A stretch of 24,000 nt of DNA from an uncultured Opitutaceae bacterium (GCA_964471615.1 CAYYGV010000007.1:33473-57472), one strand, 5' to 3'; numbered from the stretch's first letter, positions 7,046-24,000 are shown. A program made the numbers and translations. The notes: generated from the sequence alone by a model not told the origin.

Positions 7046-7054
7046 CAAACGACG

Positions 7055-7606
7055 ATGGAAGCCGTCCATTTCCAAAGTCTGGTCGATCAGTGGTATGACC
7101 CGCTCTACCGCTTCGCGCTGAGCCTTTCCCGGAACGGAGACAGTGCGCTCGACCTCACACAGCAGACGTTCGCCCGGTGGGCGGAAAAGGGCAGCGGCTT
7201 GCGGGACGCCTCTAAGGCGAAGTCCTGGCTTTTTACCGTCCTCTACCGGGAGTTTCTCAATACACAGCGCCGGCAACGCCGCGAGGGGCCGCCAGACTCA
7301 GAGGACTTCTTTGAGTCCGTCCCGGCGGAGGAAACCAGCTCGTCGCGGTCCGTCGATGGGCACCAGGCGATGGCCGCATTGCAGGAGATCGATGAGGTGT
7401 TCCGCGCTCCGTTGATCCTCTTTTACCTCGAAAACCATTCCTACAGGGAGATCGCTGAGATTCTCGACGTTCCCGTCGGGACCGTGATGTCCCGCATCTC
7501 GCGTGGCAAGGAACAGCTGCGCCGCAAACTGCGTGATGGCACTGCCGGCAAACCCGGCAAAATCGTTCCAATGACTCCTCCCACGAAAGGAGCGCACCAT
7601 GGATAA
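7055..7606 (+). CDS. ECF (sigma-70 family, group 4) RNA polymerase sigma factor, copy 2
   Basis: 183 aa. Region 2 reads YDPLYRFALSLSRNGDSALDLTQQTFARW...KSWLFTVLYREFLN. Region 4 reads FRAPLILFYLENHSYREIAEILDVPVGTVMSRISRGKEQLRRKL. Confidence 0.9.
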   Translation: MEAVHFQSLVDQWYDPLYRFALSLSRNGDSALDLTQQTFARWAEKGSGLRDASKAKSWLFTVLYREFLNTQRRQRREGPPDSEDFFESVPAEETSSSRSVDGHQAMAALQEIDEVFRAPLILFYLENHSYREIAEILDVPVGTVMSRISRGKEQLRRKLRDGTAGKPGKIVPMTPPTKGAHHG

Positions 7607-8371: not shown

Positions 8372-9526
8372 ATGATCGCTGAAACCGCTGTTCGCGAACG
8401 TTACAGTGGCGCCGCCCGTCAGGCGGAAGCCGCCCTGTGCTGTCCCGTCAACTATGACCCCAAATACCTGAAGGTCATCCCCGCCGAAGTAATCGAGCGT
8501 GACTACGGTTGCGGCGACCCTTCCCGCTGGGTGCGGGAAGGAGACACCGTGCTCGATCTCGGATCAGGCACGGGCAAAATCTGCTTTATCGCCGCCCAAG
8601 TCGTCGGTTCCAAGGGCCGCGTGATCGGCGTGGACATGACCGACGACATGCTTGAGGTCGCGCGGCGCAACGCACCAATCGTGGCTGAGCGCATCGGCTA
8701 CGCCAACGTCGAGTTTCGCAAGGGTCGCATCCAGGACATGGGCCTCGACCTAGCCCTGTTTGACCGGCACCTCCGTGAATGCCCGCTCGCCGGCGCCGAA
8801 GGCTGGTTGGAGGCGGAGCGCCTAGCGGATGATCTCCGGCGAAATCATCCCCTCGTGGCCGACCAGAGCGTGGACGTGGTCGTCTCCAACTGCGTGCTCA
8901 ACCTGGTGGACTCCGCGACCAAGCCGCGCTTGTTTCAGGAAATCCACCGCGTGCTCCGGCTCGGCGGCCGGGCGGTCATCTCCGACATCGTAAGCGACGA
9001 GGTGGTGCCCGAGCGGCTGCAGCGCGATCCCGAACTATGGAGCGGCTGCATTTCGGGGGCGCTGACGGAAATAGGATTCATCGAGGCGTTCGAGCGCGCC
9101 GGCTTCTACGGCATCGAGGTCGTCAAGCGCGACGAACAGCCGTGGCGCACGGTGGAAGGCATCGAATTCCGGTCTGTCACGATCCGCGCCTACAAGGGCA
9201 AGGAGGGGCCGTGCTTCGAACGCAATCAGGCGGTGATCTACAAAGGGCCGTTCAAAGAAGTCCTCGACGATGATGGCCACCGTTTGAAGCGCGGGGTGCG
9301 TCACGCGGTATGCGACAAAACCTTTCAGCTCTATCGAAAGGAACCGTATCGCGGGCATTTCGATTTCGTCGAGCCCCACACGGCGATTCCTCCGGAGAAC
9401 GCGCAGGCGTTCGATTGTCGGCGCGCGGCGCCACGGCATCCCCGCGAAACCAAGGGGCAGGACTACAAGATAACCACTGATGCGTCCGTGTGCTGCGATG
9501 GCGGCAACGGTGGCGCCTGCTGCTGA
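8372..9526 (+). CDS. arsM: Arsenite S-adenosylmethionine methyltransferase (ArsM-like)
   Basis: 384 aa. The SAM motif I is VLDLGSGTGKICF. Conserved cysteine contexts of ArsM-type enzymes are present: ALCCPVNYD, DYGCGDP, VVSNCVLNLV, WSGCISGA. It also has RVLRLGGRAVISDI and ends in a cysteine cluster, SVCCDGGNGGACC. It starts 20 nt after the anti-sigma stop. Confidence 0.85.
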   Translation: MIAETAVRERYSGAARQAEAALCCPVNYDPKYLKVIPAEVIERDYGCGDPSRWVREGDTVLDLGSGTGKICFIAAQVVGSKGRVIGVDMTDDMLEVARRNAPIVAERIGYANVEFRKGRIQDMGLDLALFDRHLRECPLAGAEGWLEAERLADDLRRNHPLVADQSVDVVVSNCVLNLVDSATKPRLFQEIHRVLRLGGRAVISDIVSDEVVPERLQRDPELWSGCISGALTEIGFIEAFERAGFYGIEVVKRDEQPWRTVEGIEFRSVTIRAYKGKEGPCFERNQAVIYKGPFKEVLDDDGHRLKRGVRHAVCDKTFQLYRKEPYRGHFDFVEPHTAIPPENAQAFDCRRAAPRHPRETKGQDYKITTDASVCCDGGNGGACC

Positions 9527-10629
9527 TGATCGCGATCCTCGTCATCGTCGCGACGCTGGCCGTCGGATACTTCAACGGCGCCAACGACGTCTCCAAGGCC
9601 ATCGCCACCCTCGTCGGGAGCGGGGTGACCCAGTATCGCACGGCGGTGCTGTGGGGTAGCATCTGGACATTCGCCGGCGCCGCCACCGCGGCCGTCGCGG
9701 CACAAGGCCTCGTCGCGGCGTTCAGCGGCAAAGGCCTTTTGGCGACGACCCCGGAAGGATTCGGTTTGATTCTGGCGGTTGCCGTTGGCGCGCTCGCATG
9801 GATATGGCTGGCCACCCGAACCGGGATGCCCGTTTCGACGACCCATGCCATTACCGGCGGTTTGATCGGAGCGGGGCTGGTCGCCGCTGGTGCCGGAGGT
9901 ATTCACTGGCATTTCCTGCTCGAAAAGTTCGCGCTTCCCCTGGCGGCGAGCCCGTTCATGTCGCTGCTGCTGGTGTTTGCCATATTCCCGGTGGCCCGGT
10001 GGGGACTCCGGCGCTGGGACGGTTACTGCGTTTGCGTCCAGCAGCCCGCCCCGGTCGTATGCGGCGAGGGCACGGCGGTTGCGATGAGCACGACGGAGAG
10101 TATCGTCGTGGACAAAACCGCAGCCTGCGAGCGGTCGCCCGTGACGGTAGCCGGTGTTACCGTGGTCGATGGGCTGCACTGGTTCAGCGCCGGAGCCACG
10201 GCGTTCGCCCGGGGACTGAATGATGCGCCCAAGGTGCTTGGCTTGGGTGTGCTCGCGGGCGCGAGCCTGAGCCTGCCGCTCACATGGTCGTTCCTACTGG
10301 TGGCGTTGGTGATGGCCGCTGGCAGCGTGCTGCGCGGCCTCAGAGTAACCGAGACGCTGGCAGAGAAGGTGACGCCGATGAGTCCGATGGAGGGATTTGT
10401 CGCCAACTTGGTGACGTCCATCCTGGTGATATTTGCTTCCCGGATGGCCCTGCCGGTCTCGACCACCCATGTGAGCAGCGGTGCCATCATCGGTCTCGGA
10501 CTGAGGCGGGATGCCCGTCAGGTTCGCTGGCGCACCGTCGCCGAGATGATTCTGGCCTGGATAGTCACCCTGCCCGGCGCCGGGGCGATTGCGGCTGCCA
10601 CCTATTTCCTGATCGGAGGCCGGGTATGA
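9526..10629 (+). CDS. PiT-family (PHO4) inorganic anion transporter, putative phosphate/arsenate permease
   Basis: The ATG at 9526 shares one base with the arsM stop (TGATG) and gives MIAILVIVATLAVGYFNGANDVSKAIATLVGSG. The two PiT half-repeats are GANDVSKA and GLNDAPKV, and VSTTH occurs twice. A Cys-containing central loop reads CVCVQQPAPVVCGEG...AACE. 367 aa. Confidence 0.8.
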   Translation: MIAILVIVATLAVGYFNGANDVSKAIATLVGSGVTQYRTAVLWGSIWTFAGAATAAVAAQGLVAAFSGKGLLATTPEGFGLILAVAVGALAWIWLATRTGMPVSTTHAITGGLIGAGLVAAGAGGIHWHFLLEKFALPLAASPFMSLLLVFAIFPVARWGLRRWDGYCVCVQQPAPVVCGEGTAVAMSTTESIVVDKTAACERSPVTVAGVTVVDGLHWFSAGATAFARGLNDAPKVLGLGVLAGASLSLPLTWSFLLVALVMAAGSVLRGLRVTETLAEKVTPMSPMEGFVANLVTSILVIFASRMALPVSTTHVSSGAIIGLGLRRDARQVRWRTVAEMILAWIVTLPGAGAIAAATYFLIGGRV

Positions 10630-11606
10630 ACGATTTCATTGCCACCCTGCACCGCCACAATCTCGCATTGCGCCGCGTGCATCCTCGCGTGCTGCAAATC
10701 AACGTGGGGAAGCTCTGCAACCTGACATGCATGCACTGCCATGTGAACGCCGGTCCCGGCCGTAAGGAAGTCATGGCACGGGAAACGGTGGACCGCATCC
10801 TCTCTTGGGAGGAAAAGGCGCGTTTGCCGGTCATCGATCTGACCGGCGGGGCGCCGGAAATGATTCCGGACTTTCGCTATCTCGTGCAGCAGCTGCGCGC
10901 GTTGCCCGCGGTCGAAAAGATCATCGATCGCTGCAATCTCACCATCCTGCTCCAGCCCGGCTACGGGGATCTGGTGGAGTTTCTGGCGAAGCACCGGGTC
11001 GAGATCGTCGCGTCGATGCCGTGCTACTCGCCGGAAAACGTGAATGCGCAGCGGGGCGAAGGCGTTTTCGACGCCAGCATCGAAGCCTTGCGGCAGCTCA
11101 ACGCCATCGGCTACGGCATCAATCCCGACCTGCCGCTGCACCTCGTCTTCAATCCCAACGGGGCCAAGCTCCCGGGGCTGCAGGAGGAACTCGAAGCGGA
11201 CTACAAGCGGGAGCTGCATTCGCATTTTGGCATCGTCTTTAATCGACTCTATACCATCACCAACCTGCCCGTCGCCCGCTTCGCCTCCTGGCTGCGACAC
11301 AACGGCAAATACGAGGAGTATCTCGCGTTGCTGACTCGGTCCTTCAACCCGGCGACCGTCGATGGCCTAATGTGCCGTGAGACAATTAACGTAAGCTGGC
11401 AGGGCGAGGTATTTGACTGCGACTTCAATCAGATGATGAAGATGCCGATGGCCGGAACCCAGGGGCGTTATCTCTGGGATCTCGATCCTTCGGCCCTTGA
11501 AGGCGCACCCATTGCCACGGCCGCGCATTGCTTCGGTTGCACCGCCGGCGCCGGCTCCAGTTGCGGCGGCGCCATCGAGAAGGTCGCCGAACCTGTGTCG
11601 GCCTGA
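10626..11606 (+). CDS. arsS: Radical SAM / Cys-rich-domain protein, ArsS-like (arsenosugar biosynthesis)
   Basis: The ATG at 10626 overlaps the PiT stop (ATGA); 326 aa. The radical SAM cluster motif is GKLCNLTCMHCHV. The C-terminal Cys-rich tail is CRETINVSWQGEVFDCDFN...AAHCFGCTAGAGSSCGG, as I remember for the TIGR04167/ArsS family. The tail codon is Cys (TGC), not an in-frame TGA. Confidence 0.85.
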   Translation: MNDFIATLHRHNLALRRVHPRVLQINVGKLCNLTCMHCHVNAGPGRKEVMARETVDRILSWEEKARLPVIDLTGGAPEMIPDFRYLVQQLRALPAVEKIIDRCNLTILLQPGYGDLVEFLAKHRVEIVASMPCYSPENVNAQRGEGVFDASIEALRQLNAIGYGINPDLPLHLVFNPNGAKLPGLQEELEADYKRELHSHFGIVFNRLYTITNLPVARFASWLRHNGKYEEYLALLTRSFNPATVDGLMCRETINVSWQGEVFDCDFNQMMKMPMAGTQGRYLWDLDPSALEGAPIATAAHCFGCTAGAGSSCGGAIEKVAEPVSA

Positions 11607-11626: not shown

Positions 11627-12433
11627 ATGACAATTCTGCGAAAGGTTCTGACCGCCATTTGTTTTCTCGCCGTCGAGGTGATGGCTTCCGCCGCCACGGT
11701 CGACGTTCCGGCCGGGATTGATCCGGCGCCGTGGGACGCCCTGCTGAAGAAATACGTGAACGACCGGGGACTCGTCGCCTACCAGGCATGGAAAGCGGAC
11801 GCCGCCGACCTGAGAAAGCTCGATGACTTCATCGCGGCCTACGCCAGAGCCGGCGGCGCGCCGGCGGCCGGCGCCGAGCAGATTGCGGCGCTGATCAACG
11901 CCTACAACGCGTTCACGATCCGCTGGATTCTCCAGAACTATCCGACGGAGAGCATTCGTGAGCTGGACGATTCGTGGACCAAGGCGCGTTGGACGATTGG
12001 CGGTCGCGTCGTCTCGCTCGATGAAATCGAGAACAAGAACCTGCGCCCTCTTTATAGCTGGAAGGTTCATGCGACGATCGTTTGCGCGGCCCGAAGCTGC
12101 CCGCCCTTGCAGGCGGAGGCCTACACCGCCGCCAATCTGGAGGCGCTGACGGAGCGCGCCTATCGCGCTTGGCTCGCCCGCAACGATCTCAACCAGTTCG
12201 ATGAGGCGGCCGGGGTCGCGCGCGTTTCGCCCATCTTCAAATGGTTCAAATCCGATTTTACGGGCGACGGCGAACTGGCGGCCGTGCTGGAAAGACTCGC
12301 CCCGACCCGGGACCGCGTGTTCCTGGTGGGTCGAAACTACAAGGTCGACTACCTCGACTACCGCTGGGGCCTCAATGACCAGAGCGGTCGGGGAACGGAC
12401 TACAGCCCCAGCCTCTTCAAACGTCTGTTTTGA
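11627..12433 (+). CDS. DUF547 domain protein with signal peptide
   Basis: The internal ATG at 11627 gives MTILRKVLTAICFLAVEVMASAA; 268 aa. DUF547 hallmarks are AALINAYNAFTI, VSLDEIEN..LR, HATIVCAARSCPPL and SPIFKWFKSDF. Confidence 0.8.
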   Translation: MTILRKVLTAICFLAVEVMASAATVDVPAGIDPAPWDALLKKYVNDRGLVAYQAWKADAADLRKLDDFIAAYARAGGAPAAGAEQIAALINAYNAFTIRWILQNYPTESIRELDDSWTKARWTIGGRVVSLDEIENKNLRPLYSWKVHATIVCAARSCPPLQAEAYTAANLEALTERAYRAWLARNDLNQFDEAAGVARVSPIFKWFKSDFTGDGELAAVLERLAPTRDRVFLVGRNYKVDYLDYRWGLNDQSGRGTDYSPSLFKRLF

Positions 12434-12453
12434 GTGCCGAGGAAGTGGTATCC

Positions 12454-13092
12454 ATGACGACGCTGGTAATGGTCTTTCTCAAGGCACCCCGTCCGGGCAC
12501 GGTGAAGACGCGGCTGGGGCGGGACATTGGGCATCCGCGAGCGACGGCCATGTATCGGGCGCTTGCCGAGCAACAGCTGGACCGGATCCCCGCAGAGTTC
12601 CGCACCGAAATCCACTATGCACCGCGCGGTGCTCGCATGGAAATGCGCCAATGGCTCGGCCGTCGGCATCTCTTTCGAGCGCAGAACGGCCGCGATCTCG
12701 GGGAGCGAATGAGCCGGGCCTTTGTCCAGGGATTCCTTCGCGGTTTCAAGCGGATCATCGCCATCGGGTCGGATTGCCCCGAACTCGATCAAGATTGCTT
12801 GCGTCGGGCGGACGCGGAACTTCGTCGCGCCGATGTGGTGCTAGGTCCGGCGACCGACGGGGGATACTACCTAATCGGGTTGCGCCGGCCCCAACCAGCC
12901 TTGTTCAAGGACATTGCGTGGAGCACAGAAACAGTGCTGGCGGAAACCCTGGTCCGTATCCGGGGAAACGAGCTCACTCATCGGCTGCTCGAAGAGAAGG
13001 AGGACATCGACGATCTGGCCGGTTGGCAGCGGCATCAGGCAAAGAACTCGGCGCGGCTTGCCCCAGCCGTGACTTCCGTCGTCCCCGTTTGA
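12454..13092 (+). CDS. DUF2064 / TIGR04282-like transferase (the family NCBI names as an arsenosugar-biosynthesis glycosyltransferase)
   Basis: The ATG at 12454 is preceded by GAGGAAG; 212 aa. Family hallmarks are LVMVFLKAPRPGTVKTRL, IIAIGSDCPELD, DVVLGPATDGGYYLIGLRRP and LFKDIAWSTETVLAETL. The family name is recalled from memory. Confidence 0.75.
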   Translation: MTTLVMVFLKAPRPGTVKTRLGRDIGHPRATAMYRALAEQQLDRIPAEFRTEIHYAPRGARMEMRQWLGRRHLFRAQNGRDLGERMSRAFVQGFLRGFKRIIAIGSDCPELDQDCLRRADAELRRADVVLGPATDGGYYLIGLRRPQPALFKDIAWSTETVLAETLVRIRGNELTHRLLEEKEDIDDLAGWQRHQAKNSARLAPAVTSVVPV

Positions 13093-14190: not shown

Positions 14191-15648
14191 TCAGGCCTGA
14201 ACCACCGCAACCCCCGCGCTGTCGATGGCCGGCAGTCGAAACTGAAAGCACGCTCCTTCGCCGGTCGCGGAGGCCAGGATCTCCAATGAGCCGCCGTGGG
14301 CTTCGACAAAGCGCTTGCACAGGGAGAGTCCGAGGCCGGTGCCGTCGGACTTGGTGGTGACAAAGGAATCGAAGATTCGCTCGCGCAGTTCAGCGGGGAC
14401 GCCGGGTCCGTTGTCCCGCACCGATACGGCCACCCAGATTCCGTCGGTGAAGGCGCGCACCGAAATGCGCCGCGCTCCCGGCTGGGACGCGAGCGCCTGG
14501 GCCGCATTGCGCACGAGATTGATGAACACCTGCTCGATCTGTTGGGCGTCCATCATGACTTGCGGGAGTTCCGTCGAAATGGATGCCTCGAAAACAACCC
14601 CGGCTTGCCGCAGTTCGGCGGCGATGAGTTCCTCCGCTTTTCGCAACACTTCGGCCAGCGATCCCGGCACACGCTGCACAGGATGATTGCGGGCAAAGTC
14701 GAGGAGGTTGCGCACGATCGAGGCTACGCGCCTGGTTTGCTGGGAGATGATGGCACCGGCCTTTTTCGTATCGTTGGCGTGGCCCTGCGCCAGAAGTTCC
14801 GAGTAGCCGCTGATCGCGGCGAGCGGGTTGTTGATCTCATGGGCGATGCCGGCCATCAGTTCGCCCAGCAGGTGCATCTTTTCCCCCTGCAAGAGCCGCT
14901 CATGGGCGGTCTGCAATTCCTCCAGCGCACGGCGCAGTTCCGCGGTGCGCTCTCGCACCCGGATCTCCAGCATGGCGTTCTTTTCGGCCAGCTCGGCCTC
15001 AAAGCGCGCACCCAGGGAGCGGGCGAGTCCTACGCCGATCACGGAGATCAGCAGCAATGTGGGGATCGCGGTGCCGAAGAGCTTCCAGCGCAGGGCGGCG
15101 AACTCCCGGGCGATGGCCGCGGTATTCTTGTGGACGGCGATGGTCCAGGGTTCCCGCTCCACCGGCTGATAATAGACCAGCTGCGGCGGCTCGTCGGCCT
15201 CGTGTTGCGTGCCCGCCGCCGGACGGCCGCTGAGCAGCACGCTCGAGATGGGCCGCGATTGATCCGAACCGAGGGGCGTCATGTCCATCTCGCCCCAGCG
15301 CATGCCGATCATGGCGGGGTCGGGATGACTGAGCACCCGGCCGTCCTTGTCGAGCAGGCAGAGGAAATCCGCCTGCGAGCCGGAGCCGCGGAGGACGTTT
15401 TGGACGCGACCGATGGTCTGATTCGGGGTGGCCCCCTCGGAGAGGTCGCGGTCCACGAACCGCGCAATAATCGCGGCCTCGCGCCCGGCGGCCTGCACTT
15501 GATTCGCCAGCAACTGCCGTTCAACCCGCTGCAGCACAATGAAGCTGCCGGTCAGTCCGACGGCAAGGACGGCCAGCGACACCAGCAGCAGCGTAACCGC
15601 GAAGCGACGAACCGCCCCTCTTCGCACGATCTGGAATTTCAGGGGCAT
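14191..15648 (-). CDS. Sensor histidine kinase with a periplasmic Cache-like domain (no response regulator in the window)
   Basis: The start is placed at ATG 15648 (MPLKFQIVRRGAVRRFAVTLLLVSLAVLAVGL...); 485 aa. The H-box is HEINNPLAAISGYSELL, the N-box FINLVRNAAQAL, G1 VRDNGPGVP and G2 GTGLGLSL. The loop between the two TM helices contains DFLCLLDKDGRVLSHPDPAMIG...YYQPVEREPWTIAVH. The longer track ORF (to 15774) would swallow motif P6. Confidence 0.85.
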   Translation of the reverse strand: MPLKFQIVRRGAVRRFAVTLLLVSLAVLAVGLTGSFIVLQRVERQLLANQVQAAGREAAIIARFVDRDLSEGATPNQTIGRVQNVLRGSGSQADFLCLLDKDGRVLSHPDPAMIGMRWGEMDMTPLGSDQSRPISSVLLSGRPAAGTQHEADEPPQLVYYQPVEREPWTIAVHKNTAAIAREFAALRWKLFGTAIPTLLLISVIGVGLARSLGARFEAELAEKNAMLEIRVRERTAELRRALEELQTAHERLLQGEKMHLLGELMAGIAHEINNPLAAISGYSELLAQGHANDTKKAGAIISQQTRRVASIVRNLLDFARNHPVQRVPGSLAEVLRKAEELIAAELRQAGVVFEASISTELPQVMMDAQQIEQVFINLVRNAAQALASQPGARRISVRAFTDGIWVAVSVRDNGPGVPAELRERIFDSFVTTKSDGTGLGLSLCKRFVEAHGGSLEILASATGEGACFQFRLPAIDSAGVAVVQA

Positions 15649-15700
15649 GGCTTCGGGTGGAACGATTTCCCGCCACAGGGGTTCACGGGCACAAAGGTGG

Positions 15701-15726
15701 GACGGACTTGCCCGCAAGTTATTCCC
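15701..15726 (-). promoter_or_regulatory. ECF-type promoter motif P6 (GGGAAT-N16-CGTC) upstream of the histidine kinase
   Basis: The minus strand reads GGGAAT AACTTGCGGGCAAGTC CGTC. The spacer itself holds a perfect palindrome, ACTTGC-GG-GCAAGT. The kinase ATG lies 56 nt downstream of the CGTC. Confidence 0.55.
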
Positions 15727-15783
15727 TCCACCTGGTCGCGAATCCGCTTGCGGACCGGAGACGCTTCGACCCACCCGAAGTCG

Positions 15784-16860: not shown

Positions 16861-17229
16861 TTATTGCCCGCTGCTTGCCGTGGGCGAAACCTCGACGACA
16901 CAGTTGCACCAGCCCCAGGGGTTCGGTTTGTAAGCGCAGGCGTGGGGATCGTCGCTCCAGACGCCATCAGCGATGAAGCGGTATTCGTGGTGCCCGGGAG
17001 CGAGAGGCAAACGTAAGCGCCAGTTTCCCTCGGCATCGCGCTGCATGAGCAGGCTCTCGGGATTCCAATCGTTGAAACTGCCGGCGAGAAAGACCTGCCG
17101 GGCGTTGGGAGCGTGATAACAGAATTCGGTTTCCGGAGGCGGACCTCCTTCGGCTGGAGCGGGCTTGGCCTTGCGCGGCCGGTGGCGGTGAGAGCGCGCC
17201 GCACCGGCGGGCGCAAGTTGGTCGTTCAT
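16861..17229 (-). CDS. Stand-alone CBM48 / AMPK-beta glycogen-binding-domain-like (E-set) protein
   Basis: 122 aa. FCYHAPNARQVFLAGSFNDWNPESLLMQRDAEGNWRLRLPLAPGHHEYRFIADGVWSDDPHA is the classic CBM48 / isoamylase N-terminal pattern. The N-terminal 35 aa are basic and Pro-rich. Confidence 0.75.
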   Translation of the reverse strand: MNDQLAPAGAARSHRHRPRKAKPAPAEGGPPPETEFCYHAPNARQVFLAGSFNDWNPESLLMQRDAEGNWRLRLPLAPGHHEYRFIADGVWSDDPHACAYKPNPWGWCNCVVEVSPTASSGQ

Positions 17230-17237
17230 GCCATTGA

Positions 17238-17263
17238 GACGGCGACACGCGGCATCTATTCCC
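17238..17263 (-). promoter_or_regulatory. ECF-type promoter motif P7 (GGGAAT-N16-CGTC) upstream of the CBM48 gene
   Basis: The minus strand reads ccGGGAAT AGATGCCGCGTGTCGC CGTC TCAATGGC ATG. The ATG (17229) begins 12 nt after the first base of CGTC. The motif fills the 43-nt gap after the CopZ-like gene. Confidence 0.6.
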
Positions 17264-18998: not shown

Positions 18999-19007
18999 CC
19001 ATGACTG

Positions 19008-19163
19008 ATGGGATCACAACTCCAGACCTATGTCGCGCTGGCCATCGTCCTGCTGGCTGCGGTGGGGTTGATTCGCCGTTTTTGGGGCGGCGGAAAAAAG
19101 CCTGGATGTGGCGGCGGCTGTGGCTGTTCCGCCGACGAATTCAAGAAGAAGTTGAGAAGTTGA
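19008..19163 (+). CDS. Small Cys-rich membrane peptide (FeoB-associated Cys-rich / 'p12'-like), absent from the ORF track
   Basis: My own translation gives MGSQLQTYVALAIVLLAAVGLIRRFWGGGKKPGCGGGCGCSADEFKKKLRS (51 aa). It has one TM helix, a basic stretch, then a CGGGCGC cluster, which is the layout I remember for FeoB-associated Cys-rich membrane proteins. GC3 is moderately high. The stop lies 5 nt from the convergent AhpD-like stop. Confidence 0.5.
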   Translation: MGSQLQTYVALAIVLLAAVGLIRRFWGGGKKPGCGGGCGCSADEFKKKLRS

Positions 19164-19168
19164 CCGCG

Positions 19169-19738
19169 TTAGCCCGCAGCCGGTGGCGGCGGGTGGCGCA
19201 GGATGTCGGCCAGCGCGCCGTATCCAGCCTCGGAAGCCAGCCGTTGCGACGAGATTTGATAGTAATCCGGCGAGGCGGAAATGCCCAGGCCATCGACAAT
19301 GCGGTTCATGCAATTGAACAGGGCGCAGATGACGACGGCATCGTGCAAGGCGCGTTCGTCCCAGCCGGCGGCGAAAACCTCGGCCGCGTCCGCCTCGGTC
19401 ATCCGGGCGGGCGATTCGGTCAATTTGCGCGCGTAACGGAATACCGGTTTCAGTTTCTCCGGCACCGGCGCGGCCGGAAGATTATCCAGCAGTTGCGAGA
19501 GGGTTGATTCCTCAACGCCGAACCGACGGGCCGTGGCCTGGTGGACGCCGGCGCAATAGCGACATGAATTCACGCCCGACACATAGGCGGCGAGCAGTTC
19601 GCGCTCGGCTACCGTGAAGGGCGAGTCTCCGCGCAGCAGTTGCTGATGAAATTCGATCAGCGGCGCGTAGAGCCGGGGATAATGCTGGAAAACCTCCAGC
19701 AGGCGCGCCGCGCCGGGCAGGTCTTTGCAGTAGGCCAT
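19169..19738 (-). CDS. AhpD-like 'peroxidase-related' CMD-domain protein (candidate arsenosugar-associated peroxidase-like protein)
   Basis: 189 aa. ERELLAAYVSGVNSCRYCAGVHQATA carries the CxxC. KLKPVFRYARKLTESPARMTEADAAEVFAAGWDERALHDAVVICALFNCMNRIVDGLG is typical of the peroxidase-related enzyme subfamily. Confidence 0.75.
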   Translation of the reverse strand: MAYCKDLPGAARLLEVFQHYPRLYAPLIEFHQQLLRGDSPFTVAERELLAAYVSGVNSCRYCAGVHQATARRFGVEESTLSQLLDNLPAAPVPEKLKPVFRYARKLTESPARMTEADAAEVFAAGWDERALHDAVVICALFNCMNRIVDGLGISASPDYYQISSQRLASEAGYGALADILRHPPPPAAG

Positions 19739-19782
19739 GCAAGCGTTTTGAGACGGACGTCGCGGGGTCGCAACCTTGGCGC

Positions 19783-20292
19783 TCAGAGCAGCGGTTTGAT
19801 GGCGCGCTCGAACTCCTCCTTCTCGGTGTAGCCAACATGCGTGGCGACGAGTCGTCCGTGACGATCGACGATGAACGTCGAGGGCACGGCCTCGATGCCG
19901 CCAAAGGCCCGGGCAACGGCCTCGTCGCCCATCACGACCGGGTAGTTCATGCCGAACCGCCGCATGAATTCCCTAACCGGTCCGGTGCCGCCCTGGTCCA
20001 GCGAAACCCCGACAACGACCAGACCCCGGTCGCCGTAGGCCTTCTGCAGTTCGACGAACCCGGGAATTTCCGCCCGGCAGGGTGGGCACCACGTGGCCCA
20101 GAAATCGAGGATCACCACTTTGCCGGCATACTGGCTGGACGAAACTGTCCGGCCATCCAGATCCTTCAGCTCCCAGGCAGGGGCCGGGCTGGCGGTCTGT
20201 GCCGGACTGTCGTTGGAAGGATTTGCGCGGGCGAAAAGGGCGATGGCGGCGATGGCCGCACCGGCAAGAAGGAATGAGGCGTATTTCCACAT
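19783..20292 (-). CDS. TlpA-family periplasmic thiol:disulfide oxidoreductase
   Basis: The internal ATG at 20292 gives MWKYASFLLAGAAIAAIALFARA (signal/anchor); 169 aa. GKVVILDFWATWCPPCRAEIPGF and VVGVSLD are thioredoxin-fold TlpA/ResA hallmarks. The 397-aa track ORF is an artefactual extension antisense to the GT2 gene. Confidence 0.85.
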   Translation of the reverse strand: MWKYASFLLAGAAIAAIALFARANPSNDSPAQTASPAPAWELKDLDGRTVSSSQYAGKVVILDFWATWCPPCRAEIPGFVELQKAYGDRGLVVVGVSLDQGGTGPVREFMRRFGMNYPVVMGDEAVARAFGGIEAVPSTFIVDRHGRLVATHVGYTEKEEFERAIKPLL

Positions 20293-20302
20293 AATGTGTT
20301 TC

Positions 20303-20328
20303 GACGGCGCTGGCGGGTTCTTATTCCC
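20303..20328 (-). promoter_or_regulatory. ECF-type promoter motif P4 (GGGAAT-N16-CGTC) upstream of the tlpA-like gene
   Basis: The minus strand reads ccGGGAAT AAGAACCCGCCAGCGC CGTC GAAAC ACATT ATG. The ATG (20292) begins 14 nt after the first base of CGTC. Confidence 0.6.
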
Positions 20329-20359
20329 GGCGGGGAATTGAAGGTTGTGATATTCGAAC

Positions 20360-20385
20360 GGGAATTTATACAGCCGATGGGCGTC
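20360..20385 (+). promoter_or_regulatory. ECF-type promoter motif P3 (GGGAAT-N16-CGTC) upstream of the GT2 gene
   Basis: The sequence is gggaat ttatacagccgatggg cgtc acaac. The GT2 ATG (20408) lies 26 nt after the first base of CGTC. A weaker upstream copy, GGAAT (20334-20338)-N16-CGAA, sits back-to-back with the -35 element of P4 and creates the ATTCCC-GGCG-GGGAAT inverted repeat at 20323-20338. Confidence 0.55.
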
Positions 20386-20407
20386 ACAACAAGACCCCAC
20401 CGATTGC

Positions 20408-21160
20408 ATGGCATCCGTTAACGACCGTTCCCATCCTCCTGTGACCTGTGTGTCCGTCATTGTGCCGACGTGGAACGAGGAACGGGGCCTGGCAGAGTGC
20501 CTGCGGTCGGTCGGGGCTGATCGACCCGGCGTGGAGGTGATTGTTGTCGATAGCGGCAGCACGGATCGCACTGCGGAAATCGCGGCTGGCTTTGGTGTGC
20601 GCCTGATCGCCTCTCCACTCAGGCAGCGTGCCGCGCAGCTCGACTTGGGGGTGCAGTCGGCTCGCGGCGAGGTTCTGCTTTTTCTGCATGCCGATACGTT
20701 GCTGCCCCGTGGCTGGGATGAGGCGCTTCGGCGGATGCTCGATGCCGATCCCGACACCCTTGGTGGCGCGTTTCGGCGGCGGTTCGACCATCCCTCCCTG
20801 TGGCTGCGCTGCACCTGCGCGCTGGCCGATTGGCGCGGCCGGATCTGGGGCTGTTTTCTTGGCGACCAGGCCATGTTCATCCGCACGGCGACGTTCTGGT
20901 CGCTGGGCGGTTTCCGGCCCCTCGATCGGTGCGAGGACCTCGACCTGTCGCTGCGGATGGCCCGGGCGGGGCGCACGCGAATGGTTGCCTCGCCGGTGGT
21001 GTCCTCCGGCCGGCGATTCCTGGCGCGCGGTCCATTTCGTCAGACCTGGGTGGATTTCGCGACCGCCTGGCGGTTTATCCGCCACCAGCCCGCCGCGGTA
21101 GTTCCCGTGGCGTCTCCTCCGGTTTCGGCGCCGCGCCACGAGTCCGCGCCCGTGGCGTGA
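20408..21160 (+). CDS. Family-2 glycosyltransferase, TIGR04283-like (partner family of TIGR04282 in ArsS-type clusters)
   Basis: 250 aa. VSVIVPTWNEERGLAECLRSV, VEVIVVDSGSTDRTAEIA, LLFLHADTLLP and CEDLDLSLRM form a GT-A fold with a DxD-like motif. The family assignment is from memory of TIGRFAM naming. Confidence 0.75.
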   Translation: MASVNDRSHPPVTCVSVIVPTWNEERGLAECLRSVGADRPGVEVIVVDSGSTDRTAEIAAGFGVRLIASPLRQRAAQLDLGVQSARGEVLLFLHADTLLPRGWDEALRRMLDADPDTLGGAFRRRFDHPSLWLRCTCALADWRGRIWGCFLGDQAMFIRTATFWSLGGFRPLDRCEDLDLSLRMARAGRTRMVASPVVSSGRRFLARGPFRQTWVDFATAWRFIRHQPAAVVPVASPPVSAPRHESAPVA

Positions 21161-21183
21161 CCCGACCAAGACCAAGCTCCCTT

Positions 21184-21954
21184 ATGATTGGCTACCTCGT
21201 TGGTTCAGGATTCTACGATCAACCCGGCTTCGCACCCTCGGAGGTCGAGACCCGCCACGGTCGCGTTACGGTCTGGCGCGGTCAGGTCGGCGGACCGGTC
21301 GCGCTTATCTCCCGGCATGGCGCGGGACACGCGCGTCTTTCCCACCAGGTCAACCACCGGGCGAATCTGCTTGCGTTGAAACAGCTGGGGGCGAGCGCCG
21401 TGGTCTCGTGTTCCGTCTGCGGTGTCGTTCGGAACGATTGGCCCATCGGCGGACCATTGCTGGCGTCGGAAATGTATTTTCCGTCCAACCGGCTGCCCGG
21501 CGGCGAACTCTGCACCGTATTTGACCAGCCCGGCGAAACGGGCCGGGGCCATCTGATCGCCGGCTCCTTGATCGATGGCGCTCTGAGTGCCGCAATCGAG
21601 CAGGTCTGGCGCCGTCAGGGCTTGGCTCCGCAGATCGGCACCTACGGGCATGTGGACGGACCGCGTCTCAACACCAAATCGGAAATCAAGGCCCTGCGCG
21701 CCGCCGGCGTCGACTTCATCTCCCAAACCTGCGGTCCGGAGGCGGTCCTGGCCAACGAGCTGGAACTGCCCTACGCGCTCGCGGCTTTTGGCGTCGATCA
21801 TGCCAACGGCGTGGTGACGCCGCCGACTCCGTCGGAAGTGCTCAAAAACAATCTGACCGCCGCCACGCAGGCCTTTAGATCGTTGATCGAAGCGCTGGCC
21901 GAGCCGGCGGGAGGATTCCAGTTCGCCAATTTCGTCTACCGCTTCGGACCCTGA
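21184..21954 (+). CDS. MTAP-family (PNP/UDP_1 fold) nucleoside phosphorylase
   Basis: The internal ATG at 21184; 256 aa. MIGYLVGSGFY, ALISRHGAGHARLSHQVNHRANLLALKQLGASAVVSCSVCG, YGHVDGPRLNTKSEIKALRAAGVDFISQTCGPEAVLANELELPYA and DHANG match the methylthioadenosine phosphorylase family pattern. Confidence 0.8.
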   Translation: MIGYLVGSGFYDQPGFAPSEVETRHGRVTVWRGQVGGPVALISRHGAGHARLSHQVNHRANLLALKQLGASAVVSCSVCGVVRNDWPIGGPLLASEMYFPSNRLPGGELCTVFDQPGETGRGHLIAGSLIDGALSAAIEQVWRRQGLAPQIGTYGHVDGPRLNTKSEIKALRAAGVDFISQTCGPEAVLANELELPYALAAFGVDHANGVVTPPTPSEVLKNNLTAATQAFRSLIEALAEPAGGFQFANFVYRFGP

Positions 21955-21998
21955 AGCCAGTTCCGGGGTTCGTTATTTGCGCCATTCGCATGAGTAGC

Positions 21999-22024
21999 GG
22001 GAAGAAATCGCGGCTTCGCCCGTC
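21999..22024 (+). promoter_or_regulatory. Near-match to the recurrent ECF promoter motif (P2): GGGAAG-N16-CGTC
   Basis: The sequence is gggaag aaatcgcggcttcgcc cgtc caaac acca ATG. The -10-proximal 9-mer CGTCCAAAC is identical to P1, and the ATG at 22034 has the same 13-nt offset as the sigma ATG at P1. Confidence 0.5.
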
Positions 22025-22033
22025 CAAACACCA

Positions 22034-22117
22034 ATGCACAGGAAATTGCTCCACTCCAACCCAAGTTCTGCGGCCGCAAGTCAACTGCGCTCTTTTCCGG
22101 CAAGATTGATTTCATGA
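22034..22117 (+). CDS. Possible 27-aa upstream ORF translationally coupled to the TVP38 gene
   Basis: My own translation gives MHRKLLHSNPSSAAASQLRSFPARLIS. The ATG sits at the predicted leaderless position of P2. The stop overlaps the TVP38 ATG (ATGA at 22114-22117). There is no family support, so this is speculative. Confidence 0.25.
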   Translation: MHRKLLHSNPSSAAASQLRSFPARLIS

Positions 22118-22821
22118 CACAGAGAGCAAACCCAGAGGCCCGGCCGGCATCGCCCCTGAAGTGGCTGCTCTATGCCGGCGTGGCGGCCGGCCTGATCGTC
22201 GCCGCCAGGCTTCTGCATGCGCAGGAGCTGCTCCAACAAGCTCTCGCCTGGGTGGCGCAGCTCGGGCCTTGGGGACCGGTCATTTTCGTCGCGCTCTATG
22301 TTGTCGCGACCGTGCTCTTCATCCCCGGATCGGTTCTGACTCTCGGCGCAGGCGCCGTCTTCGGTGTCGTGTGGGGTTCGGTCTACGTGTCCGTTGCCTC
22401 AACACTTGGCGCGACGTGTGCCTTTCTCGTCGGGCGGTATCTCGCACGCAACGCTGTTGCCCGAAAAATCGAGGGCAACGAACCCTTCGCCGCGATAGAC
22501 AGGGCCGTGGCAAACGAGGGCTGGAAGATCGTTGGCCTGACCCGGCTCTCGCCGGTCTTCCCCTTCACCTTGTTGAACTATGCGTTCGGCCTGACGAGGG
22601 TATCGCTTCGCGCCTACGTGCTCGCTTCGTGGATCGGCATGATGCCGGGCACGGTGATGTATGTCTATCTGGGGTCGCTGGCGAAAGCGGCATCGGGAGA
22701 ACGAATCCGCACTCCTGGCGAGTGGGCGCTCTATGTCGTCGGTCTCGTCGCCACCGTGGCCGTCACGGTGTTTGTCACGCGCATCGCGAAGCGGGCCTTG
22801 GCGGAAAAGATCACCTCCTGA
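22114..22821 (+). CDS. TVP38/TMEM64 (DedA-related, SNARE-associated) family membrane protein
   Basis: 235 aa. LGPWGPVIFVALYVVATVLFIPGSVLTLGAGAVFGVVWGSVYVSVASTLGATCAFLVGRYLAR and RLSPVFPFTLLNYAFGLT are family hallmarks. Confidence 0.85.
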   Translation: MTQRANPEARPASPLKWLLYAGVAAGLIVAARLLHAQELLQQALAWVAQLGPWGPVIFVALYVVATVLFIPGSVLTLGAGAVFGVVWGSVYVSVASTLGATCAFLVGRYLARNAVARKIEGNEPFAAIDRAVANEGWKIVGLTRLSPVFPFTLLNYAFGLTRVSLRAYVLASWIGMMPGTVMYVYLGSLAKAASGERIRTPGEWALYVVGLVATVAVTVFVTRIAKRALAEKITS

Positions 22822-22844: not shown

Positions 22845-24000
22845 ATGAGCAAGACAATCCAGCCCCCCGTCCTTCCATGGGACACCCACAACCAGGCGCT
22901 CGTCTCCAATGTGCAACCGCCGGAGTGGACCAACCCGACCCCCGCGGCGCGTTACAATCTGGTGGTGATTGGCGGCGGGACGGCCGGACTGGTCACTGCG
23001 GCCGGAGCGGCCGGTTTGGGCGCCAAGGTTGCGTTGGTGGAAAAGCATTTCTTGGGCGGCGACTGCCTCAATGTCGGCTGCGTGCCGTCCAAGGCGATCA
23101 TCCGCGCCGCGCGCGCGGCGGCCGGGGTTCGCGACAGTGCGGCGTTCGGGATGCGGGTTCCGGCCGGCACGACGGTGGATTTCGGCGCGGTCATGGAGCG
23201 GATGCGCCGGCTGCGGGCCGGCATCAGTCCGCATGATTCCGCCCGCCGCTTCAGCGAAATCGGCGTGGACGTGTTTTTGGGCGGCGGACGGTTCACCGGG
23301 TCGGATGCGGTCGAGGTGGGCGGCCAGACCCTGCGTTTCAGCAAGGCGGTCATCGCCACGGGCGCGCGGGCTTCCGCCCCGCCGATTCCGGGGCTCAAGG
23401 ACGTGCCTTTCCTAACCAACGAGACCTTGTTTTCGCTGACCGAGTTGCCGCGAAGGCTCGGCATCATCGGCGCCGGCCCGATCGGATGCGAAATGGTCCA
23501 GAGTTTCGCCCGCTTCGGTGCGGAGGTTTTTCTGGTCGAGGCGGAGCACGGCATTCTGCCGCGCGAAGACCGGGATGCGGCGGGGATCGTGCAGGAGGCC
23601 CTCGCCCGCGATGGGGTGAAACTGCTCTGCTGCGGCAAGGATCTCAAGCTCGCCAAAGACCCCAACGGCGTTCGTCTGCAAGTCGAGTCGCACGGCCGCG
23701 GTTACGACCTCGTGGTCGATCAGTTGCTGGTGGCCGTCGGTCGCGCGCCCAACATTGAAAACCTCGGACTGGAGGTCGTCGGGGTCGAATTTGACCGCAA
23801 GGGAGTCAAGGTGAACGACCGGCTGCAGACCGCCAACCCGCGCATCTTCGCCTGCGGCGACATCTGTTCGCCGTATCAGTTCACGCACGCCGCCGACTTC
23901 ATGGCGCGCATCGTGATCCAGAACGCGCTGTTCCTGGGGCGGGCGAAGGCCAGTGCCCTCACCATTCCTTGGGCGACCTACACCTCGCCGGAAATCGCCC
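22845..24000 (+). CDS. FAD-dependent pyridine nucleotide-disulfide oxidoreductase, class I ('mercuric reductase-like' / dihydrolipoamide dehydrogenase-like), 3' end outside the window
   Basis: This ORF is not in the track because it has no stop in the window. My own translation from ATG 22845 gives MSKTIQPPVLPWD...YNLVVIGGGTAGLVTAAGAAGLGAKVALVEKHFLGGDCLNVGCVPSKAII (FAD motif plus redox CxxxxC). It continues ...LGIIGAGPIGCEMVQSFARFGAEVFLVE (NAD(P)H motif) and ...IFACGDI. There is no N-terminal HMA (NmerA) domain. Confidence 0.85.
   Translation, partial: MSKTIQPPVLPWDTHNQALVSNVQPPEWTNPTPAARYNLVVIGGGTAGLVTAAGAAGLGAKVALVEKHFLGGDCLNVGCVPSKAIIRAARAAAGVRDSAAFGMRVPAGTTVDFGAVMERMRRLRAGISPHDSARRFSEIGVDVFLGGGRFTGSDAVEVGGQTLRFSKAVIATGARASAPPIPGLKDVPFLTNETLFSLTELPRRLGIIGAGPIGCEMVQSFARFGAEVFLVEAEHGILPREDRDAAGIVQEALARDGVKLLCCGKDLKLAKDPNGVRLQVESHGRGYDLVVDQLLVAVGRAPNIENLGLEVVGVEFDRKGVKVNDRLQTANPRIFACGDICSPYQFTHAADFMARIVIQNALFLGRAKASALTIPWATYTSPEIA

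Follow-up and report, generated by a model that had tools for sequence, protein, structure and literature searches.

We analysed a 24,000-nucleotide window (contig C7:33473-57472) from an uncultured Opitutaceae bacterium, represented by a soil-type metagenome-assembled genome of 4.35 Mb with 67% G+C and a completeness of 80.5%, and focus here on the four genes at 19169-21954 and the part they may play in the biosynthesis of arsenosugars. On the plus strand, the gene for a TIGR04283-family glycosyltransferase (GT2) is followed by that for a predicted nucleoside phosphorylase with the fold of MTAP (5'-methylthioadenosine (MTA) phosphorylase), hereafter MTAPl; on the minus strand, the gene for a TlpA-like thiol-disulfide oxidoreductase is followed by one for an AhpD-like protein, and the two units diverge from a spacer with a predicted extracytoplasmic function (ECF)-type promoter for each (Table 1). 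All four genes and the spacer lie where a preliminary description of this DNA had placed them, the 115-bp spacer at 20293-20407, with P4 on the minus and P3 on the plus strand, being exact to the nucleotide. Upstream on the plus strand stand the genes for an ECF sigma factor (7055-7606) and an anti-sigma factor, followed by those for ArsM, a PHO4 transporter and the radical S-adenosylmethionine (SAM) enzyme ArsS, and by DUF547, TIGR04282 and redoxin genes. A histidine kinase gene, a CBM48/AhpD-like unit and a small mer-like module separate the ArsS operon from 19169-21954, and 3' of the phosphorylase gene come those for a DedA/VTT protein and then a class-I FAD disulfide reductase. The closest homologs belong to Opitutaceae and other Verrucomicrobiota.

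Table 1. Features of the window discussed in the text; positions are counted from the first nucleotide of the window.
Feature	Position	Strand	Remarks
P1, same motif as P3 and P4	7021-7045	+	9 nt before the ATG of the cluster ECF sigma gene (7055-7606); putative autoregulatory copy
ArsS radical SAM enzyme	10668-11606	+	TIGR04167 430.8 bits (cut-off 300); maker of the presumed MTAPl substrate
TIGR04282/DUF2064 protein	12430-13092	+	TIGR04282 193.8 bits (cut-off 134); proposed to act on the MTAPl product as a nucleotidyltransferase
AhpD/CMD-like peroxidase-related protein, 189 aa	19169-19738	-	TIGR01926 92.5 bits (cut-off 81.8); Pfam CMD 35.8 bits
TlpA/ResA-type thiol-disulfide oxidoreductase, predicted to be exported or anchored, 169 aa	19783-20292	-	AhpC-TSA 93.4 bits; Redoxin 90.6 bits
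P4, predicted ECF-type promoter GGAATAAGAACCCGCCAGCGCCGTC, GGAAT-N16-CGTC	20303-20327	-	Ends 10 nt before the TlpA ATG
Inverted repeat ATTCCC-GGCG-GGGAAT	20323-20338		-35 box of P4 plus an extra GGAAT copy (20334-20338) that has no -10 box
P3, predicted ECF-type promoter GGAATTTATACAGCCGATGGGCGTC, GGAAT-N16-CGTC	20361-20385	+	Ends 22 nt before the GT2 ATG
TIGR04283-family GT2 glycosyltransferase, 250 aa	20408-21160	+	TIGR04283 198 bits (cut-off 182); Glycos_transf_2 87.7 bits
MTAPl, predicted MTAP-fold nucleoside phosphorylase, 256 aa	21184-21954	+	PNP_UDP_1 87 bits; start 23 nt past the GT2 stop
One-mismatch motif GGAAG-N16-CGTC	22000-22024	+	Ahead of a short open reading frame and the DedA gene; read from the sequence
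DedA/VTT-domain membrane protein	22114-22821	+	VTT_dom 109 bits; in 24 of 80 loci, no more than 10 kb from MTAPl
Class-I FAD pyridine-nucleotide disulfide oxidoreductase	22863-24000	+	NF004991 615.6 bits; Pyr_redox_2 193.6 bits; gene cut by the end of the window

MTAPl is related to, and distinct from, the canonical MTAPs. Against TIGR01694, the MTAP equivalog model (EC 2.4.2.28), it scores 116.1 bits, well below the cut-off of 274.85, with the canonical MTAPs of other genomes at 280-304 bits, and no NCBIfam model claims the window protein. Its AlphaFold2 model is of high quality (predicted local distance difference test score 91.3, predicted template modelling score 0.91) and adopts the MTAP/purine nucleoside phosphorylase (PNP) alpha-beta fold; the 50 best fold matches in the PDB are all MTAP or MTIP, with template modelling (TM) scores of 0.75-0.81. 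An alignment was made of 81 relatives, the window protein among them, eight canonical MTAPs and two representatives of a second type of paralog. Phosphate-binding and catalytic residues (S/T8, R44, H45, H49, S/T77, T182 and D205) are kept in 77 to 81 of the 81 clade members; we take their equivalents in human MTAP to be Thr18, Arg60, His61, His65, Thr93, Thr197 and Asp220, as mapped by motif alignment. Fold and retained residues together indicate that MTAPl is probably an active enzyme.

Other positions are altered throughout the clade. Gln181 replaces Met196 in all 81 members, as compared with Met in eight of eight canonical MTAPs; Ala207 replaces Asp222, the second adenine-binding acid, in 80 of 81 (Asp in all eight canonical enzymes); and Asn163 replaces Ser178 in 78. 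The clade also has an NRL..G..C..RGH loop of its own and a C-terminal Y-R-F, both nearly invariant, and its signatures (SQT, (V/T)DYANG, NRL..G..C, RGH and Y-R-F) are all present in the window protein, Leu162 and His206 being minor variants. The 5' pocket of MTAP is normally hydrophobic, and a Gln there lets the Schistosoma enzyme bind a polar 5' group (PMC5147791). Alignment to MTAP alone places Gln181 and the new loops in this pocket, and from these substitutions (Met196 to Gln, Asp222 to Ala) the 5' pocket of MTAPl is predicted to be remodelled and its specificity changed. In the tree the MTAPl clade stands apart (support 100/98, stem length 1.19), and a profile built on the alignment gives its members 278-409 bits, canonical MTAPs 109-132 and the second paralog of this genome 83; the window protein, itself a row of the alignment, reaches 411.6 bits against a membership level of about 270. 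After clustering at 50%, the clade amounts to a few dozen representatives among 6,511 relatives. What MTAPl has in common with canonical MTAP (human 1CB0, Sulfolobus 2A8Y, Aeropyrum 1WTA) is the fold, at a TM score of about 0.8 and 22-30% identity, the phosphate loop and the catalytic equivalents, whereas the score below the equivalog cut-off, the separate clade, the changed residues and a context of arsenosugar genes rather than methionine salvage set it apart. The second MTAP-family gene (G000:C252:1365-2060, in locus L007, minus strand; L-numbers denote compared loci and G-numbers compared genomes) encodes 232 aa that score 159 bits on TIGR01694, also below the cut-off; this paralog keeps Met196 and has IDNYANG, and the same type occurs in G194, the pair forming a long tree branch of its own.

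The genomic context of the clade was surveyed in its best 80 loci, which span more than ten phyla including archaea, with ArsS, TIGR04282, TIGR04283, DUF547 and ArsM as core markers. A core marker lies within 10 kb of MTAPl in 58 of the 80 loci and is its immediate neighbour in 51; where each flank extends for 5 kb or more, a core marker is present in 27 of 35 loci. TIGR04282 is the commonest immediate neighbour (34/80), and ArsS holds that position in seven. In the window, the TIGR04283 GT2 gene lies 23 nt upstream of MTAPl, and ArsS and TIGR04282 lie 8-10 kb upstream. In L004 and L006 the MTAPl and DUF2064 frames overlap by 4-8 nt, and three distant homologs, taken from one genome of Kiritimatiellota and one assembly each of Actinobacteria and Verrucomicrobiota, all have ArsS, ArsM, DUF547, DUF2064, GT2 or VTT genes around them. 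The window locus is a member of a widespread arsenosugar-type cluster, and since this distinctive clade recurs beside arsenosugar genes in more than ten phyla, MTAPl is the best candidate for the removal of adenine from the nucleoside that carries the arsenic.

An association is seen within the phylum as well. Among 301 Verrucomicrobiota genomes, 15 encode ArsS, a base rate of 5%, and all 15 of these encode TIGR04282; MTAPl is found in four genomes, all among those 15 and none ArsS-negative. An obligatory partnership of MTAPl with ArsS was rejected on this count (4/15, compared with 15/15 for TIGR04282), and MTAPl is an accessory, not a universal component of the pathway. A separate observation concerns G085 (L103:6655-11480), where a canonical-scoring MTAP (TIGR01694 279.7 bits) heads an MTAP-DUF547-DedA-FAD reductase-TIGR04282-GT2 operon; a canonical MTAP in the MTAPl slot implies that a second, independent MTAP branch was recruited there.

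The promoters offer a second line of evidence. Exact copies of GGAAT-N16-CGTC number five in the window, each with a 16-nt spacer, against 1.36 in shuffled sequences; the whole genome holds 44, which corresponds to about 0.24 expected per 24 kb versus the five seen, and of eight genomic copies of the tighter form GGAATA-N15-CGTC, four lie in the window. Relatives within the Verrucomicrobiota (55-77% protein identity) have the motif immediately 5' of the genes for sigma, ArsS, DedA, DUF547, GT2, TlpA, TIGR04282 and FAD reductase and, in L020, of the phosphorylase gene itself. The two closest relatives, L009 and L010, keep P4, 11 nt before the ATG; P3 is kept in L010 with a 21-nt gap and is present in L009 too, so that the divergent TlpA/GT2 promoter pair is retained in both, with -35 boxes 27 and 139 nt apart compared with 34 in the window. 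An arrangement like that of P1 precedes the sigma gene in L013, L022 and L024, and exact motif copies precede DedA in L011, L012, L013 and L024. G194, a complete genome from the same family, has 12 motif matches, five of them inside its 11-kb arsenosugar cluster, whereas two ArsS-negative relatives have scattered matches only: clustering of the motif is specific to arsenosugar clusters, although the sigma family is not. Judged by the boxes at fixed spacing, the copy before the sigma gene and the position kept in relatives, P3 and P4 are conserved putative promoters of the ECF type. Their description as such, already part of the preliminary account, gains comparative backing from the enrichment, the sigma-gene copy and the conservation in relatives.

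Because P4 ends so close to the start codon, the TlpA mRNA would be leaderless or nearly so. In L009-L032 a gap of 8-12 nt often separates the end of the motif from the start codon, and three window copies lie 8-10 nt from an ATG (7045-7057, sigma; 17227-17238, CBM48; 20290-20303, TlpA); such gaps, in the window and in relatives, imply leaderless transcripts in this regulon. The leader between P3 and GT2 (window 20386-20410; L010:5278-5302) conserves CCACCGAYYGCATG in both and has no Shine-Dalgarno-like sequence. No sigma-70-like sites were found in 19000-22200. Elsewhere, G194 has a back-to-back motif pair (L104:11161-11189) with -35 boxes 4 nt apart, lying between a minus-strand gene and DUF547 and divergent like P3 and P4. 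A further window copy (15701-15725, minus strand) lies inside the long open reading frame of the histidine kinase (14191-15774, minus strand), 52 nt before an internal ATG, which suggests that this kinase, of about 485 aa from the internal start, also belongs to the regulon.

Two transferases, one resembling TIGR04282 and one TIGR04283, had been proposed to use the phosphorylase product. The second of these, the GT2 encoded by the first gene of the P3 unit, scores above the TIGR04283 cut-off, and all its PDB relatives are GT2/GT-A enzymes. The first needs revision: by profile comparison, TIGR04282 matches CofC (6BWG, 1.6e-6), FbiD (7P97, 3e-6) and 2I5E (1.9e-5), and more weakly KdsB and GlmU, all of them nucleotidyltransferases, and it resembles a nucleotidyltransferase of the CofC/FbiD type rather than a further glycosyltransferase. 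The CofC/FbiD guanylyltransferases of F420 biosynthesis are its best characterised PDB relatives, and share with it the N-terminal K..P.PG.VKTRL-type and D.P motifs; they differ in acting on three-carbon phospho-acids, not sugar-1-phosphates, and the homology is remote. Since TIGR04282 appears nucleotidyltransferase-like, the two enzymes would act in series rather than in parallel. A single open reading frame (441-824 aa) encodes both TIGR04282 and TIGR04283 in G194 (L104:7947-9188), G085 (L103:6655-7878) and G228 (L112:7676-8911), and this fusion argues for consecutive steps.

To our knowledge, ArsM and ArsS are the only pathway enzymes that have been shown experimentally, and in the 1980s Edmonds and Francesconi reportedly put forward the loss of adenine from a nucleoside carrying arsenic. 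An NCBIfam scan and a literature search found no curated model or paper that gives the arsenosugar pathway a phosphorylase. ArsS adenosylates dimethylarsenite to 5'-deoxy-5'-dimethylarsinoyl-adenosine (DDMAA), and its productive turnover uses up the adenosyl group, none of which is released (PMC13598754). From there, MTAPl would phosphorolyse DDMAA to adenine and alpha-5-deoxy-5-dimethylarsinoyl-ribose-1-phosphate, TIGR04282 would join this sugar phosphate to a nucleoside monophosphate, giving a nucleoside diphosphate (NDP)-arsenoribose, and the TIGR04283 GT2, acting as an inverting enzyme, would move the sugar to an acceptor. Formation of an alpha-ribose-1-phosphate by inversion at C1', followed by an inverting GT2, would yield the beta-riboside seen in all natural arsenosugars. 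In genomes without MTAPl, another enzyme, for example a canonical MTAP, would have to take off the adenine. At the locus itself, P4 would drive the leaderless TlpA-like/AhpD-like redox pair and P3 the GT2 and MTAPl, both within the regulon of the cluster sigma factor. We regard this explanation as a whole, the sigma-regulon promoters together with the route from DDMAA through MTAPl and TIGR04282 to GT2, as reasonably probable. More tentatively, and with the balance of our judgement still leaning the other way, we put forward MTAPl, TIGR04282 (as an NDP-arsenoribose pyrophosphorylase) and TIGR04283 as the missing second half of arsenosugar biosynthesis, in a cassette that may also serve other radical SAM adenosylation pathways, in actinomycetes.

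The closest precedent in logic comes from hopanoid synthesis, namely that of the bacteriohopanepolyol side chain, in which radical SAM adenosylation by HpnH is followed by removal of adenine by the PNP homolog HpnG (PMC13459092). There, as in the route proposed here, the 5'-deoxyadenosyl group of SAM is added to a substrate and an enzyme of the PNP_UDP_1 superfamily removes the adenine, leaving a ribosyl derivative (PMC13459092). The window ArsS weakly matches the HpnH model TIGR03470 (2.3e-7), and HpnG is not among the 11 NCBIfam families matched at E <= 1e-3. MTAPl differs from HpnG in lying on the MTAP branch, in a cargo that would be an arsenical rather than a triterpene, and in next steps that would be nucleotidyl activation and glycosyl transfer rather than ring opening; the resemblance is one of pathway logic only. 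Another related system is the cyanobacterial ArsM-ArsS pathway as covered by NCBIfam (TIGR04167, TIGR04282, TIGR04283 and TIGR04169). The window has ArsM and, each scoring above its cut-off, ArsS, TIGR04282 and TIGR04283; beyond that set it carries the ECF sigma/anti-sigma pair, the PHO4 transporter, TlpA/AhpD and DedA/FAD reductase. ArsM matches NF040538 with 346 bits, and ArsM and ArsS stand behind the same promoter motif. The ArsS frame is open for about 128 codons 5' of the domain (window 10284-11606), overlapping the end of the PHO4 gene (9490-10629), and the start at 10668 is uncertain.

Several observations weigh against the proposed route. Eight of the 35 well-flanked loci have no marker gene near MTAPl, and 11 of the 15 ArsS-positive Verrucomicrobiota lack MTAPl; five of these 11 have a canonical MTAP, one has MtnN, and in four neither an MTAP nor MtnN is seen. 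The four MTAPl-positive Verrucomicrobiota, for their part, have no canonical MTAP above cut-off (0/4 versus 5/11 in the other ArsS-positive genomes, a comparison of few genomes), so that a housekeeping role for MTAPl in those four stays conceivable. Displacement of a canonical MTAP by the non-orthologous MTAPl would be one reading of these small counts, and three genomes outside the phylum carry both enzymes. None of the best 80 MTAPl loci comes from a photosynthetic cyanobacterium, and photosynthetic cyanobacteria are proven arsenosugar producers. Streptomyces and other actinomycetes carry MTAPl, TIGR04282 and GT2 together with other radical SAM proteins and without ArsS above cut-off, and the substrate of their cassette may not be an arsenical. 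With regard to TIGR04282, its reading as a nucleotidyltransferase draws on remote homology (E about 1e-6), and it might be the acceptor, not the sugar, that the enzyme activates. With regard to the promoters, homologs of the ECF sigma factor (50-60% identity) occur in 52 of the 301 Verrucomicrobiota, most of them ArsS-negative, a second ECF sigma factor is encoded in the window at 2021-2779, and we infer the pairing of the 7055-7606 sigma factor with P3 and P4. The idea of this sigma factor as an ArsS-specific regulator was rejected as stated, given the number of homologs in ArsS-negative genomes. The preliminary proposal of the phosphorylase as the step after ArsS is sustained in so far as the clade is tied to arsenosugar genes (58/80 loci, and all four verrucomicrobial carriers being ArsS-positive), and falls short of universality.

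Three other explanations can be envisioned. Under the first, a general cassette of MTAPl, TIGR04282 and GT2 turns 5'-modified adenosines of whatever kind, produced by a radical SAM adenosyl transferase, into an activated 5-substituted ribose, with arsenic as one of several cargoes and, here, a trivalent arsenical, a thio-arsenical, another arsenical or something else again as the substrate in place of DDMAA. The actinomycete loci with other radical SAM enzymes and without ArsS fit this view, as do some loci that lack ArsM; the window itself, where ArsM (346 bits) and ArsS (431 bits) stand behind the same motif, and the confinement of MTAPl to ArsS-positive genomes in Verrucomicrobiota speak against it, and we hold it to be unlikely. 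In one such actinomycete locus, L047:5368-15915 of Streptomyces regalis, ArsM, the FAD reductase, a weak radical SAM protein (517 aa), MTAPl, TIGR04282 and GT2 lie together, along with a Metallophos/radical SAM fusion (Rv1681-like, 272 bits), in a genome without ArsS above cut-off.

A second explanation makes MTAPl a scavenger of by-products that leaves the arsenical untouched: it would remove MTA, or the 5'-deoxyadenosine left when ArsS cleaves SAM abortively, and so keep the radical SAM and methyltransferase steps free of inhibition. MTAP-family enzymes do take 5'-deoxy and 5'-substituted adenosines (PMC5147791), MTAPl lies directly beside ArsS in seven loci, and the four MTAPl-positive Verrucomicrobiota have neither a canonical MTAP nor MtnN above cut-off, two of them having weak sub-threshold MtnN matches. 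5'-Deoxyadenosine and MTA, however, have hydrophobic 5' ends, for which the invariant change of Met196 to Gln and the polar loops would be unexpected; the preferred neighbour of MTAPl is TIGR04282 (34 loci) rather than ArsS; no adenosyl release accompanies productive ArsS turnover (PMC13598754); and MTAPl occurs alongside a canonical MTAP in three genomes, those of Streptomyces regalis, Streptomyces dysideae and an Aminicenantes member. Scavenging is for these reasons quite unlikely in our estimation. In the Aminicenantes genome, an 85-aa frame (G003:C1:574400-574639) matches the last 80 residues of ArsS alone, and could represent an arsS gene that is interrupted by a selenocysteine codon (TGA) or broken. 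The third explanation, an ordinary housekeeping MTAP that happens to lie beside a transferase gene, with motif matches arising by chance, is very improbable and already contradicted: NCBI does name the homologs merely 'MTAP family purine nucleoside phosphorylase', and a canonical MTAP could have been missed in a genome about 80% complete, yet the score (116 bits versus a cut-off of 275), the separate clade, the synteny across more than ten phyla, the enrichment of the motif and its conserved position all oppose it. The route from DDMAA through MTAPl, TIGR04282 and GT2 remains the reading we prefer.

The minus-strand unit fits this route less closely than had been suggested. The TlpA-like protein has a hydrophobic N-terminus, a predicted anchor, and a WCPPC motif (Cys69/Cys72), and falls below the curated cut-offs for both ResA (NF002854, 103.5 versus 170 bits) and TlpA (NF047696, 77.2 versus 230 bits); from these features it is TlpA-like in kind only, a putative thioredoxin-fold redoxin with WCPPC and an N-terminal anchor. 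The AhpD-like protein carries CRYC, a CxxC motif, at residues 59-62, and its gene, the second of the P4 unit, starts 44 nt past the TlpA stop. TlpA-like orthologs stand behind the same motif in L009 and L010, and L010 has an AhpD-like ortholog in the same position (344 bits). At a strict score, TlpA occurs in 5 and AhpD in 2 of the 80 MTAPl loci, all of them among the nearest relatives, and the pair was rejected as conserved members of the cluster: both are accessories confined to this lineage. As redox partners, it is DedA and the FAD disulfide reductase that recur, the latter found within 10 kb of MTAPl in 12 of the 80 loci. TIGR04169, the ArsS-associated model, has no match anywhere in this genome, and membership of the AhpD-like proteins in that family was rejected on this ground. 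The earlier notion that thiol chemistry is integral to the pathway finds no support in TlpA and AhpD, given their rarity.

The inverted repeat in the spacer is present as first described. Perfect repeats with 6-nt arms and spacers of 0-10 nt number 128 in the window, at least one arises in 18.6% of shuffles of the 115-bp spacer, and the extra GGAAT copy is absent from L009 and L010. A role as an operator was rejected, the repeat being at chance level and its extra GGAAT missing from these relatives; it is probably accidental or a relic.

In marine algae and seafood, organic arsenic occurs mainly as arsenosugars. For the steps of arsenosugar formation that remain, this locus and its relatives point to three concrete enzymes, in a scheme that is stereochemically consistent, and they suggest that TIGR04282 may be mislabelled in databases as a glycosyltransferase. 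They also indicate that non-photosynthetic soil and sediment bacteria, together with some archaea, carry the pathway under the control of a stress sigma factor, which bears on the sources of organoarsenicals in the environment. If MTAPl should prove not to be specific for arsenicals, the cassette would still represent a general route by which the products of radical SAM adenosylation are converted into activated 5-substituted riboses.

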